In this document: piece after piece, positions 9,087-59,914 of the stretch
Layout: each line of letters starts with the position of its first letter
Position numbering within the stretch: the first letter of the stretch is position 1
Assembly: GCA_038851075.1 (NCBI GenBank)
Contig: JAWCLG010000005.1
Location: 2,308-66,307 of the forward strand
Source: Candidatus Hadarchaeales archaeon
Lineage (GTDB): Archaea > Hadarchaeota > Hadarchaeia > Hadarchaeales > Hadarchaeaceae
Length of the DNA: 64,000 nucleotides
Direction of reading: 5' to 3'
Notes under the pieces: generated by a model
Seen by the model: the letters and a program-made list of their open reading frames with translations, nothing else
Told to the model about the DNA's origin: nothing
Database searches by the model: none
Program-made: the position numbers and the translations under genes

Positions 9087-9248
9087 ATGAAGATGAAAAA
9101 GTGCAAACCCTGCGGGATATACACCCTGAAGGAAGTCTGTCCCAGATGCGGAAAGAAAACGGTTTCACCGCATCCGCCACGCTTTTCACCTCTTGACCCG
9201 TATGGGAAATATAGGCGAATGACCAAACGGTGTGCGGAGGTGCTGTGA
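9087..9248 (+). CDS. nop10: H/ACA RNP protein Nop10
   Basis: KCKPCGIYTLKEVCPRCG...PHPPRFSPLDPYGKYRR. Confidence 0.97.
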   Translation: MKMKKCKPCGIYTLKEVCPRCGKKTVSPHPPRFSPLDPYGKYRRMTKRCAEVL

Positions 9249-42439: not shown

Positions 42440-42670
42440 GGCGGGAACTTCGATCCCTTCCCTACTCGCCCGGCGAGCAGACGAATCTCGACCACCTCGC
42501 CCGCCCGCAGTTTTTTCAGGTCAGGATCTTTATCCCGCAGTCGATGTCTCCCTCCGTTCTTCCACGGAGGTTATCCGCGCTCTTCCCCGGTTTTTCGCCC
42601 GGGTTTTCACGCGGGTCCCCGTTGCCCGTAGGCTCCGGTTCGACCTCCTCTGCGGGCTTCCGTTCCCGCC
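42440..42670 (-). ncRNA. Candidate unclassified structured RNA (~231 nt)
   Basis: 9-bp terminal helix GGCGGGAAC/GTTCCCGCC, several perfect internal GC helices, a C(UACG)G tetraloop and purine-rich loops on the minus strand. BRE/TATA lies upstream and T6 downstream. The RNase P CR-I/CR-V and SRP helix-8 motifs are absent. Confidence 0.65.
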
Positions 42671-42697
42671 GGTAATCCATTTGGTCAGGATCCTTAT
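42519..42697. repeat. 15-bp direct repeat (14/15 identical): 42519-42533 and 42683-42697
   Basis: ggtcaggatctttat versus ggtcaggatccttat; one copy is inside the candidate RNA, the other between its TATA box and predicted start. Confidence 0.8.
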
Positions 42698-56880: not shown

Positions 56881-58986
56881 TCACGGAGCGCTTTTGTCCT
56901 CATTTTCTTGATTCTCACGTTGGCTTTTTCTCGTGTTCCACCCTTCCTTCGTCTCGCAGCTGAGATTCAGGCACATTTTGTAGGGTCTTCTTCCAGGTCT
57001 TATAACTTGGATAACCGGAGCCCCGCACTTCCCGCACGTCTTGTTCAGGGCCGCAATGGTGCCGACCTGCGGAAGCGGAAACGTCTGATCGCACTTTGGA
57101 TAGTTCGAACATCCGGCGAATCGCTTCCGGCTGGTTCTGGAAACGACAACCCTGAGCTCACCGCCGCACTTCTGGCATTTTCCAAGAACCCTCTGCCTGA
57201 TGCGCGTCCGCCTGTATGCCTCTGCCAGTTCTCTTCCGACGCTTATCTGGTTCTCCCTGAACTTTGAAAGGATCCTGTCTAGTTCAGCACGTGCCCTGGC
57301 TATCACCTCGTCCCTGGTCTTCTTGCCCTCCTGTATTGCATCCATCTCGCGCTCAAACTCTGCGGTTAGCTCCTCGCTTGCTATCTCCGGGCAGTATTTG
57401 AGAATGGCCTCCACCACAGCCAGACCCAGATCCGTGACGGTTATCTGTGATCCTTGAATGTAGTCCCTCTCGTAAAGATGCTGAACAATTGCAGCCCTCG
57501 TGCTCTTGGTTCCGATACCGATTTCCTCCATCTTCTTAACGATGGATGCAGGGTTATACCGCGGCGGAGGTTGCGTTTCCTTCTCTTCGAGAACGATGTC
57601 CTTCACCGCCAGCGTGTCGCCCTCTTTCATATTGGGAAGAACCATCTCCTCGGAGGCCCCGTACTGGCCATAGTACTCCAGCCAACCCTCCCGAATTACC
57701 CTGCGGCCGTGAATCAGGAATGGCTCACCTCCGACATTCAGTTCCACCTTCATTCCTTCGAGGATGGCGGGCTCACCGAAAACCGACAGGAAGCGCCTGG
57801 CTATCAGGTCATAGAGCCTGCGGTGCTGGCCGGATATTCCTCCGGGGTTTTCTCCGGTTGGGTGTATAGACGGGTGTGCCGGATCGCTTTTCTTCCCCTC
57901 GTTCGGAATGAGCTTTGGCATCGCGAGGAGGCCATGTGCGAGTTTTTTGTAGTCCTCGATCTCTCCGAGTTTTTTCACTATCTTCTCGTATCCTATTGTG
58001 ACCGGCAGCTTCTGGCTCGAAGTCCTGGGGTAAGAGATAAGTCCGGCAAGGTATAGGTCCTGGGCCAGCTGTTGCGTCCTCATGGGTGTGTACCCGAAGC
58101 ATCTGTAAGCTTCAGCCTGGAGCGTCCCGAGGTCGAACGGTACGGGAGGAAGACGCCTGTACTGCCTGAGATGAACAGATGATACCTTTGCCGGTTTCCC
58201 TTTGCAGACCTCGAGCACCCTCTGAGCCTGCCCCCTGTCAAAGAATCTGGGTGTGGCGTGGGCGGCGGAGATCTCCTCGCCAGAGACGTCAAGCAGAAGC
58301 GTGATCGTCCAGTAGGGTTCCGGCCTGAAAGCGCTTATCTCCTTTTCTCGGTCCGCCAGTATCTTCAGGGTGGGAGTCTGGACCCTTCCGGCTGAGAGCT
58401 TGGCGAAACGCTGTTCTGCAGCCTTCACCGCAGAACTGAGCGCCAGCGAGGTGTTTATTCCCCAGTACCAGTCCATCACGTGTCTGGCGATCCCGGCATC
58501 TATCTGCTCGAAATCCAGCCGTGGCATCGGGTTCTCGTATGAGCACCGGAGTTCCTCCGCGGTCAGAGTTGAGAATTTCATGCGCTTTGCGCGTTTAACG
58601 GCATCTTCACCGCAGAGATACTTCAGAATCATGAAGGCTATAACCGATCCCTCGATGTCGAAATCGCAGGCCGAAATGTAATCCGTTGCATTCGCCGCCA
58701 ACTCTCTTATCGCTTCAACGAAAACCCTTATTCGGGATGCCCTTCTGTCGGCTTCATAAACCGGCACCCAGTCCACATCATAAATCGGATAGTTGCGCAT
58801 TGGCTTGGTGTTCTTGAGGGTGAAGAGGTGTCCGAGCGCGGGCACCACCACACACTGATTTTCATCAATGCTGAATTCATAGTATGGCACGCCTTTCAAT
58901 TTTTTCTCTACGGATTTTCCCCCAGAGATCGCCGAGGCGATCTTCGCGGCGGCCATGGGTTTTTCACATATTATCAGAGTTTTCAT
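56881..58986 (-). CDS. topA: DNA topoisomerase I (type IA)
   Basis: LIICEKP, GHL, ACDFDIEG, SAGRVQTP, ISYPRT (catalytic Tyr) and AHPSIHPTG motifs, plus C-terminal Zn ribbons. Confidence 0.97.
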   Translation of the reverse strand: MKTLIICEKPMAAAKIASAISGGKSVEKKLKGVPYYEFSIDENQCVVVPALGHLFTLKNTKPMRNYPIYDVDWVPVYEADRRASRIRVFVEAIRELAANATDYISACDFDIEGSVIAFMILKYLCGEDAVKRAKRMKFSTLTAEELRCSYENPMPRLDFEQIDAGIARHVMDWYWGINTSLALSSAVKAAEQRFAKLSAGRVQTPTLKILADREKEISAFRPEPYWTITLLLDVSGEEISAAHATPRFFDRGQAQRVLEVCKGKPAKVSSVHLRQYRRLPPVPFDLGTLQAEAYRCFGYTPMRTQQLAQDLYLAGLISYPRTSSQKLPVTIGYEKIVKKLGEIEDYKKLAHGLLAMPKLIPNEGKKSDPAHPSIHPTGENPGGISGQHRRLYDLIARRFLSVFGEPAILEGMKVELNVGGEPFLIHGRRVIREGWLEYYGQYGASEEMVLPNMKEGDTLAVKDIVLEEKETQPPPRYNPASIVKKMEEIGIGTKSTRAAIVQHLYERDYIQGSQITVTDLGLAVVEAILKYCPEIASEELTAEFEREMDAIQEGKKTRDEVIARARAELDRILSKFRENQISVGRELAEAYRRTRIRQRVLGKCQKCGGELRVVVSRTSRKRFAGCSNYPKCDQTFPLPQVGTIAALNKTCGKCGAPVIQVIRPGRRPYKMCLNLSCETKEGWNTRKSQRENQENEDKSAP

Positions 58987-59130
58987 GGTCTTCAGTTTTA
59001 TTTTCAAAGAGCAAATAGATATTGGTGTCGGCTCTCATGGTCTTTCTACTGGGCAGCTTCGGTCCATCAGTCGCAGCAAATAGTCTTTTACCGATTTACT
59101 CCAGATGTTATAATGCAATGATGGGATAAA

Positions 59131-59402
59131 GGCCGCAGGAATCGAGAGCTGGCGTGATCAGTGATCGTCGGTGCATCACTGCGGCGACACCTGAGCGCAC
59201 CCGCCGAGAACCACGCCAAATTGGGTCCTTCGGGGAGTTATTGGCGGGATCGTCTATCGATGACCCTGAAGACAACCCTGGCGTGTAACAGGCGGGCCGG
59301 GCCCCCGGGAAAAACCCTGCCATCGAGGGTTAGCGGGCGGAGTGCGTCGGAACGACAGTCCGTGAGGCTCGCTGTTAGTTGTGCCAGGGACATCGGGGGC
59401 CC
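59131..59402 (+). ncRNA. Candidate structured intergenic RNA element (~270 nt)
   Basis: Multiple 7-9 bp helices, a C(UUCG)G loop and crossing helices. G-U wobbles work only on the plus strand. TTATAA lies upstream. No credible ORF. Confidence 0.45.
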
Positions 59403-59404
59403 GT

Positions 59405-59914
59405 TTAATATTGAATGCCCCTTGTGGTCTGGATCTTCTTCGGATGCTTGATGTCCACAACCTCGTTCACGAATTCAGCCCTTTCAATCAGCTCCTTGGG
59501 GGCGTATCTGCCGGTGAGAAATACGTCCGTTCCCTCAGGTAGCCGGTCCAAAAACTCTATAACTTCTTTCACGTCGATGAGTTTGCAGTGCACCGCCAGG
59601 TTTATTTCGTCCAGGATGAGAAGATGCGGTTTTTTCTCCTCCACGATTTTTTTTGCGAACTCGAGCCCTTTTCTCACAAGCTTTTTGTCTCTCTCATCCA
59701 GGTTTTTGAGGCCGACCCACCCCCTCCTTCCGAACTGATATATCTCGTAATACGGTTTGAGCCTGTCCCTGATTTTGTATTCTCCGACGTTTTTCCACCA
59801 CTTCATGAACTGTATCACGACAACCTTCCGACGATGTCCGACGGATCTCAGTGCGGCGCCGAGAGCGTTTGTGGTCTTTCCACCTCCGGTTCCGGTGTAG
59901 AGATACACTGCCAT
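59405..59914 (-). CDS. cobO: Cob(I)yrinic acid a,c-diamide / cob(I)alamin adenosyltransferase (CobO/BtuR type)
   Basis: YTGTGGGKTTNALG.ALR..GH, IQFMK, LDEINLA and TGRYAP motifs. Confidence 0.92.
   Translation of the reverse strand: MAVYLYTGTGGGKTTNALGAALRSVGHRRKVVVIQFMKWWKNVGEYKIRDRLKPYYEIYQFGRRGWVGLKNLDERDKKLVRKGLEFAKKIVEEKKPHLLILDEINLAVHCKLIDVKEVIEFLDRLPEGTDVFLTGRYAPKELIERAEFVNEVVDIKHPKKIQTTRGIQY

Follow-up and report, generated by a model that had tools for sequence, protein, structure and literature searches.

What does the gap of ~400 bp between topA and cobO encode in the genome of a Candidatus Hadarchaeales archaeon? We analysed a 64,000-nucleotide stretch of this DNA (the window; GenBank assembly GCA_038851075.1, contig JAWCLG010000005.1, positions 2,308 to 66,307), in which a first-pass annotation, made from the letters alone, had seen a structured element between the two genes and read it as one or two unclassified noncoding RNAs or, less probably, as a minus-strand leader of topA. 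Our reading, to which we assign a probability of roughly 0.88, is that the RNA is a three-motif archaeal box H/ACA guide small RNA (sRNA), the Hadarchaeal counterpart of Pab40, Pf7 and Afu4 (Rfam family HgcG). The label 'unclassified' gives way to an H/ACA guide related to HgcG/Pab40, with identifiable targets in ribosomal RNA (rRNA); of the 'one or two' RNAs the single gene has survived, divided into three modules, and the pair has not.

Structure and class of the RNA

BLASTN matches to positions 59109-59402 came from 32 of 41 relatives, with identities of 67-84%, and from 49 of 66 genomes across the Hadarchaeota, almost all of which carry just one copy. We aligned 29 homologues with MAFFT (A1), folded the alignment with RNAalifold and completed the fold by hand to 67 nested base pairs. 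On this alignment 85.7% of cells are paired, as compared with 37-47% when the partners are slid; both sides change at 37 of the 67 pairs, and none of 500 shuffles reaches the observed pairing or covariation score. Folding energy is also better than that of shuffled sequences, more so on the plus strand (z = -2.83) than on the minus strand (z = -1.73). The numerous conserved G·U pairs, which would turn into C·A in a minus-strand transcript, place the RNA on the plus strand, as the first-pass annotation had proposed. The helices are 76-100% paired across the 29 sequences and carry compensatory changes (helices 3 and 4 of motif 1, 98-99%; helices 10 and 11 of module 3, 92-94%, with compensatory changes). 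The exception is the lower stem of motif 3 (55.6%), which we blame on alignment offsets: this stem occurs in two length variants that MAFFT misaligned. Folded one by one, nearly all of the 29 homologues form the module 3 architecture unaided.

Most of the helices originally read from the letters recur in this structure. GCCGCAG/CUGCGGC is supported by covariation and corresponds to the lower stem of motif 1, and the second UGGCGUG, suggested as an alternative partner, proved to be the right one, with CACGCC pairing with GGCGUG to form the lower stem of motif 2. Covariation likewise supports the closed domain GGGCCCCCG/CGGGGGCCC, the pairing GCGGGC/GCUCGC within the proposed AGCGGGC/GCTCGCT, and the apical GUC/GAC of the proposed GTCG-GAA-CGAC. 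Three further proposals were lost. The alternative CAGUGAU/AUCACUG is 66% paired with covariation no better than that of shuffles; for the pseudoknot of UGGCGUG (59150-56)/CACGCCA crossing CCCGCCGA/UUGGCGGG (59241-48), 334 of 500 shuffles reach the observed pairing; and the supposed hairpin CC-UUCG-GG is the 5' strand of the motif 2 upper stem.

The fold contains three hairpins, each made of a lower stem, a pocket and an upper stem, and each carrying the kink-turn (K-turn) or kink-loop (K-loop) of archaeal H/ACA RNAs, with GA/GA dinucleotides that show little or no variation in any of the three motifs. We take the K-loop of motif 1 to be near-identical to that of P. furiosus Pf9. As read from the sequence, the stems between the pocket and the G·A pairs measure 10 bp in motif 1 (counted to the second G·A pair), ~9-10 bp in motif 2 and 9-10 bp in motif 3, and the ACA boxes, each within a closed internal loop, lie 14, 16 and 16-17 nt from their pockets. 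Published ranges place the ACA at 14-16 nt from the pocket, with 17 nt tolerated, and the K motif 8-11 bp above it. All three pockets show bipartite complementarity flanking an unpaired U. At the position of the motif 3 box, ACA is present in 22 of the 29 sequences and AAA in 2, and the box is absent from 5.

At gathering thresholds Rfam gave no match in the window region or at the loci of 20 relatives. In E-value mode, HgcG (RF00064) was the only meaningful match in the window (30.8 bits, E = 9e-7) and the only family to recur across loci, at 15 of 20 homologous loci in the same place and on the same strand, always sub-threshold at 18-30 bits; seven of these 15 matches span all three motifs. 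Within motif 3, the alignment to the corresponding HgcG motif includes the 3' pocket UGUUA and the ACA box. By the Rfam criterion the element is not filed as a member of RF00064; it is a remote relative beyond the reach of the model. A clear hit to a known family, which the first-pass annotation itself had named as refuting its reading, exists in substance, with an Rfam score that stays below gathering. The same genome encodes core proteins of the H/ACA ribonucleoprotein (RNP), namely nop10 within the window (~9087-9230; Pfam PF04135, 84.5 bits) and a TruB_N/Cbf5 gene on contig C8; the search covered these two.

Two other identities were considered and rejected. Signal recognition particle (SRP) RNA and RNase P RNA gave no match at the element even at E <= 10, and an identity with either is rejected; both RNAs are present elsewhere in the genome, as they are in six relatives, above cut-offs. 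A cobalamin-type regulator of cobO was dropped, as cobO is adjacent only here and no Rfam match was obtained.

Predicted rRNA targets

The assembly of the window's own genome contains only a 3' fragment of the 23S gene, and 23S sequences were taken from 18 relatives, each paired with the guide of the same genome. Candidate sites were found by complementarity first and compared with the literature afterwards, in a scan with flexible pocket borders and a 2-4-nt gap; a strict scan with a 2-base gap and fixed pocket borders gave no consistent matches. Target positions follow the E. coli numbering. The sites so predicted are U2496 near the peptidyl-transferase centre for motif 1, U2554/2555 in the A loop (helix 92) for motif 2 and U1915 of helix 69 for motif 3, with U1917 of the same helix probably a further motif 3 target in a UAUA geometry. 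In motif 1, AUCGAG and GCA can pair with UGC-UAC-CUCGAU (3-4 + 6-7 bp). In motif 2, CAACCCU and UGGGU can pair with AGGGUUG-UUC-GCCCA of the A loop (7+5 bp), which is the top or joint-top rRNA match in three of three complete rRNA operons tested. In motif 3, CGAGGGUUA and GUUA can pair with UAAC-UA-UAACCCUC of helix 69 (4+8 bp), leaving U1915 in the pocket. Three rather than two unpaired target bases recur in the duplex models, for which Pab19 and sR-h45 provide published precedents. A further site, GCGAACCUCGAUGUCCCUCUUGGUG, with an 8-bp complement to the 5' guide of motif 1, was set aside for lack of a U at the target position. Motif 1 of family f2 has no match at 2496 and forms a canonical 5+8-bp duplex with GAUGC-UA-UCUUUCGG (U2613); it looks as if the target of motif 1 had switched between U2496 and U2613 within the order.

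A stronger argument than complementarity is that guide and target change together, and at least one compensatory guide-target change is seen at each of the three sites. In G010 and G023, GCCCA of the A loop is replaced by GCCCG, and the pairing guide base has changed from U to C. In family f5 (G028, G034), CUCGAU of the 2496 region has become CUCGCU and the guide AUCGAG has become AGCGAG. The helix 69 variant of G023 (UCUGACCC; UAACUCUGACCC) is accompanied by a change of the guide from GGGUUA to GGGUCG.

The predicted sites also coincide with published ones. Motif 1 of Pab40 guides modification of P. abyssi 23S position 2588 and its motif 3 that of 2016, one of the conserved pseudouridines of helix 69, and motif 2 of Afu4 has been assigned to the equivalent of P. 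abyssi 2647. The Pab35 sites 2549, 2672 and 2697 have as E. coli counterparts 2457 (RluE), 2580 (RluC) and 2605 (RluB), which sets the offset in domain V at 92; 2588 therefore corresponds to 2496 and 2647 to 2555, exactly the sites predicted here. The published sites of Pab40 motifs 1 and 3 and of Afu4 motif 2 are thus all recovered.

The rRNA genes themselves show several peculiarities. In G028 (L104) the 2496 region reads UUUGC-AGU-CUCGCU, with A and not U at the predicted target position, yet on the downstream side the motif 1 guide forms an unbroken 9-base pairing; this guide may act without modifying, or on a neighbouring U. Many Hadarchaeota 23S genes carry insertions of ~800-850 nt (L038/G025, L039/G018, L103-L111), presumably introns, and these lie exactly at predicted guide targets, after helix 69 (…UAACUAUAACCCUC|) and within 2496-2503 (…GCUACCUC|); the stretch that follows the break in the 2496 region of G025 looks protein-coding by eye. 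The helix 69 loop of G034 (L107) contains an insert of ~31 nt, GGGGGUAACUAUA[CGUCAGGUGCCAAGGUACCUGGCGGGUUACA]ACCCUCUUAAGG, which may be a mini-intron. In the window's genome (G000), the 23S gene is represented by no more than its final ~440 nt (C4:2071-2514), preceded, from the contig end, by ~2 kb of non-rRNA sequence, with the join just past the A loop; the 16S match C3:10-831 is oddly short as well, the whole model covering just 822 nt. Such short matches could stem from an intron, from a gene that is split or from a break in the assembly.

Closing helices and alternative readings

We regard the RNA as one of a familiar kind, met in a new lineage and showing an architectural variant that is well supported. 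The variant consists in a further helix that encloses every motif together with its ACA: the outer stems of modules 2 and 3, and a K-turn in module 1. In each module a purine-rich linker of 6-7 nt stands opposite (N0-2)ACA(N0-1), with the ACA in an internal loop; the linkers of modules 2 and 3 are comparable to that of module 1. The K-turn of module 1 is of the box C/D type. In the 29 sequences AUGA and GG of its 5' strand are invariant, and GAGC of its 3' strand is invariant or nearly so; columns 115-118 of A1 covary with columns 26-29 (the terminal stem), and stems I and II are 90% paired, as compared with 19-49% when slid, a value that none of 500 shuffles attains. A limited literature search found no description of closed H/ACA modules.

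We compared this architecture with that of Pab40 via the Rfam consensus lines and the published papers. Like Pab40, Pf7 and Afu4, the Hadarchaeal RNA carries its three H/ACA motifs on a single molecule of comparable length, with their order unchanged; it shares with Pab40 and Afu4 the same three 23S targets (the 2588 site, the A loop and helix 69) and with the Pab40 family an irregular motif 2 that has a large insert and a weak upper helix. It differs in the extra helix around each motif and its ACA. Whereas the Pab40 transcript begins at the first base of motif 1, Hadarchaeal motif 1 is closed by the 5'-terminal C/D-type K-turn, and the HgcG consensus shows no pairing ahead of motif 1 or beyond the motif 3 ACA, where the Hadarchaeal RNA is paired. 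In addition, Hadarchaeal family f2 differs from Pab40 in a motif 1 that fits U2613 and a motif 3 without ACA.

Other known guides share single traits. One hairpin of the two-hairpin sR-h45 from Haloferax volcanii guides formation of Ψ1940 and Ψ1942 in helix 69 (E. coli 1915 and 1917; Ψ, pseudouridine), using an unpaired UVUN in the target and tolerating an ACA distance of up to 17 nt. Hadarchaeal motif 3 offers the same geometry, with UAUA; sR-h45 has two hairpins and not three, however, its other target is Ψ2605, and closing helices have not been described for it. The atypical H/ACA-like RNAs of Pyrobaculum and Sulfolobus islandicus are, similarly, Cbf5/L7Ae guides that depart from the classic layout of hairpin and ACA tail, and they document that Cbf5 tolerates non-classic architectures, but the Hadarchaeal RNA departs in the opposite way, by adding a helix on the far side of the ACA. 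The Pab21-sR9 composite of Pyrococcus also unites an H/ACA motif and a C/D-type K-turn motif on one RNA. Its two motifs stand side by side and its C/D part is a complete guide, in contrast to the Hadarchaeal C/D-type K-turn, which wraps an H/ACA motif and has no C'/D' partner.

Several observations count against an H/ACA guide of the HgcG kind. The HgcG scores of 18-31 bits are far under the gathering score of 77. Motif 3 lacks its ACA in family f2, where the ACA loop is missing and the two stems run continuously, and the binding mode described for Cbf5 does not involve an ACA shut inside an internal loop. Three of the four candidate target sites were read in relatives and not in the window's genome. 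In most of family f1 the duplex of motif 1 with U2496 is short (3+6 bp, three unpaired target bases), and a second motif 1 site, GAUGC-UA-UCUU (U2613, 5+4 bp), scores alike. Where the named site leads, 0-23 of 100 shuffles of the rRNA attain the top bipartite score (motif 2 in three genomes, motif 3 in G010 and G008, and motif 1 at U2613 in G011 and G008), and other sites ranked first for motif 3 in G011 (73 of 100 shuffles) and for motif 1 in G010 (87 of 100); complementarity alone is thus statistically weak. The coevolution has exceptions, too, with one mismatch each in G002 and G037 and an rRNA fragment in G031, which may be foreign, at odds with its guide, and each compensatory change represents only one or two evolutionary events. 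Expression of the RNA and the ends of its transcript are predictions from sequence.

Among the alternatives, the one that best withstands these data, although we regard it as unlikely, takes the transcript for a precursor that is cut, and perhaps circularised, into three single-hairpin H/ACA sRNAs, with the outer helices as processing signals. Each module is a self-contained closed domain with 1-2 nt between neighbours, and the Pab21 RNA of Pyrococcus occurs both joined to its C/D motif and in a form that lacks it; but no internal promoters or bulge-helix-bulge-like motifs are visible, and Pab40, Pf7 and Afu4 (from Pyrococcus, Thermococcus and Archaeoglobus; RF00064) are reported as three-motif RNAs. 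Less plausible is a dual function, in which the 5' C/D-type K-turn would recruit Nop5-fibrillarin and the RNA would guide 2'-O-methylation too. The box C-like AAUGAUGG, the box D-like CUGA and the covarying terminal stem would suit such a role, as would a weak match to the C/D family snoZ152 (17.8 bits, E = 2.1). However, this terminal K-turn is the only C/D-type one, no C'/D' pair exists at the required spacing of ~12 nt, the nearest second K motif being the K-loop 31 nt off, the D box is not conserved as CUGA but merely as NNGA in most relatives, and any guide preceding box D would fall within the motif 1 lower stem, with which this sequence varies. That the element is a structured L7Ae-binding RNA of some other function, with a mere resemblance to H/ACA RNAs, we consider highly improbable: it would accommodate the sub-threshold Rfam score, the enclosure of the ACA in internal loops and the shortness of some guide-target duplexes, but all three pockets match exactly the Pab40/Afu4 sites and coevolve with them, and the geometry obeys the published H/ACA rules. 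The position between the two genes in this genome might suggest a 5' leader or cis-regulator of topA on the minus strand, or else an element at the 3' side of cobO. These readings can practically be dismissed, since the conserved G·U pairs work only on the plus strand, the minus-strand fold is weaker, the element is conserved beside ribonucleotide reductase (RNR) instead of topA and next to cobO only in this genome, and its own conserved promoter, with a B recognition element (BRE) and a TATA box, faces the plus strand.

If the RNA is an H/ACA guide, L7Ae would bind the K-loop or K-turn of each motif and Cbf5-Nop10-Gar1 its lower stem and ACA; the two pocket strands would pair with 23S rRNA on either side of one uridine, which Cbf5 would convert to pseudouridine. 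The closing helices may insulate the modules from one another and protect the RNA ends in a thermophile, and the 5' K-turn may bind a fourth L7Ae. Insulation could matter because the 5' guide of motif 3 is complementary to the 3' guide of motif 2, over 8-9 nt in the relatives L002-L004 and ~6 nt in the window. We give an even chance to the more specific proposal of a Hadarchaeales 'closed-module' form of H/ACA RNA, in which extra helices act as clamps, the C/D-type K-turn of module 1 holds a fourth L7Ae and motif 1 has been retargeted between U2496 and U2613. If this is true, Cbf5 reads the ACA inside an internal loop, closed modules make up a third class of architecture, next to the classic H/ACA RNAs and the stem-less 'atypical' ones, and they might serve thermostability, end protection or module-wise processing.

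Gene boundaries, copies and wider meaning

The gap between topA and cobO contains no Pfam-supported ORF (open reading frame), and its G+C content exceeds that of its flanks. A Pfam search of the three ORFs that overlap the element gave no match; a protein-coding reading was dropped, in keeping with the earlier view that these ORFs are spurious. The first-pass annotation had pointed to TTATAA (59108-13), which we do not take for the TATA box. In its place, AAA..(C)TTTTA / TTTATA is conserved at -36..-25 relative to a conserved GCRAUGA in ~30 homologues, and in the window the corresponding BRE/TATA lies ~27 nt upstream of GCRAUGA, which suggests a transcription start at ~59113-59115. The GTTATAA stretch is more likely to be a promoter-proximal element than a TATA box, because a start 25 nt downstream of it would land within the lower stem of motif 1. 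The transcript probably ends at a short T-tract, as T-rich sequence follows CGGGGGCC in most homologues. With these boundaries (Table 1), the element is predicted to be a single independent plus-strand gene for an RNA of ~290 nt, ~59114-59405. Its independence is indicated by the neighbouring genes, which differ among relatives: topA in some and RNR in others, with cobO only in the window's own genome. This conservation away from topA and cobO bears out the preference of the first-pass annotation for a plus-strand noncoding RNA gene over a topA leader.

Table 1. Coordinates of the RNA gene, its predicted elements and the flanking genes in the window
Feature	Position	Strand	Remarks
topA	56881-59007	-	Topoisom_bac/Toprim
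Predicted archaeal promoter	59078-59091	+	A-rich BRE-like stretch and TATA box CTTTTAC (59085-91)
GTTATAA AT-rich stretch	59107-59113	+	directly 5' of predicted start; AT-rich at -8..-1 in all homologues
Box C/D-type K-turn, 5' strand	59113-59124	+	5'-(A)UGC-AAU-GA-U-GG: stem I (A)UGC, 3-nt bulge AAU, sheared GA, U, stem II GG; box C-like AAUGAUGG
Purine-rich 5' linker GAUAAAG	59125-59131	+	faces motif 1 ACA in the alignment
H/ACA motif 1	59132-59189	+	aligns to motif 1 of Rfam HgcG
Motif 1 lower stem, 7 bp	59132-38 with 59179-85	+	GCCGCAG/CUGCGGC
Motif 1 5' guide	59139-47	+	
Motif 1 upper stem	59148-54 with 59166-72	+	
Motif 1 K-loop UGAUCAGUGA	59155-64	+	region to U59165
Motif 1 3' guide	59173-78	+	
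Motif 1 ACA	59187-89	+	14 nt from pocket; invariant
Box C/D-type K-turn, 3' strand	59190-59198	+	CC-U-GA-GCGC-3': stem II CC, U, sheared GA, stem I GCGC; box D-like CUGA
Module 2	59200-59296	+	H/ACA core 59212-59290
Module 2 outer stem CCCGCC/GGCGGG	59200-05 with 59291-96	+	compensatory changes at 6/6 pairs
Module 2 linker	59206-11	+	
Motif 2 lower stem, 6 bp	59212-17 with 59280-85	+	100% paired
Motif 2 5' guide	59218-27	+	
Motif 2 irregular upper stem	59228-35 with 59264-71	+	
Motif 2 K-turn and apical insert	59236-63	+	G35·A63, A36·G62; bulge GAU 59259-61
Motif 2 3' guide	59272-79	+	
Motif 2 ACA	59288-90	+	16 nt from pocket; invariant
Module 3	59299-59402	+	H/ACA core 59315-59392
Module 3 outer stem GGGCCCCCG/CGGGGGCCC	59299-307 with 59394-402	+	
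Module 3 A-rich linker	59308-14	+	
Motif 3 lower stem, 9 bp	59315-23 with 59381-89	+	one conserved mismatch
Motif 3 5' guide CGAGGGUUA	59324-32	+	
Motif 3 upper stem	59333-38 with 59367-72	+	GCGGGC/GCUCGC
Motif 3 K-turn and apical hairpin	59339-66	+	apical GUC/GAC 59346-48 with 59354-56
Motif 3 3' guide UGUUAGUU	59373-80	+	
Motif 3 ACA	59390-92	+	16-17 nt from pocket
Short T-tract	59404-59406	+	right after last helix; probable transcript end
cobO	59405-59914	-	

The window's genome contains a second copy of the RNA gene (C19:10338-10627, 84% identity), which adjoins a cobO paralogue with 83% protein identity. The duplicated segment is limited to ~800 bp of cobO and sRNA (C19:9834-10627, L031) and adjoins a Na+/H+ exchanger gene; nothing else on C19 is nearly duplicated within the genome. 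Both copies keep the guides of motifs 1 and 2, and the differences in their stems are compensatory. The motif 3 pocket differs slightly, reading UCGAGGGUUA/UGUUAGUU as compared with CGAGGGUUA/GGUUAGUG.

Two other loci were noted. The structured RNA at 42440-42673 on the minus strand of the window, the first element to which the first-pass annotation alludes by calling the present one the second, does not look like a second H/ACA guide, as no obvious layout of K-loop, pocket and ACA was found on reading its sequence. In G006, a snoZ267 match below threshold (L005:1275-1345, minus strand; 31.3 bits, gathering score 43), which precedes the guide gene by ~150 nt on its upstream side, may be a C/D sRNA gene.

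The RNA described here would be the first H/ACA guide RNA identified for the Hadarchaeota, an uncultured phylum of hot springs and the subsurface, with pseudouridines predicted at three sites central to ribosome function, one in helix 69, one in the A loop and one in the peptidyl-transferase region. It would make the Pab40/Afu4 guide older and more widespread than the Rfam model detects, and the present alignment of Hadarchaeota homologues might serve as the seed of a wider-ranging model. The closing helices, together with the 5'-terminal K-turn, form a testable variant that bears on the recognition of ACA by Cbf5 and on how thermophiles stabilise multi-hairpin guides. Guide-target coevolution, together with the apparent switch of motif 1, would provide a compact natural example of how guides track and change their substrates.

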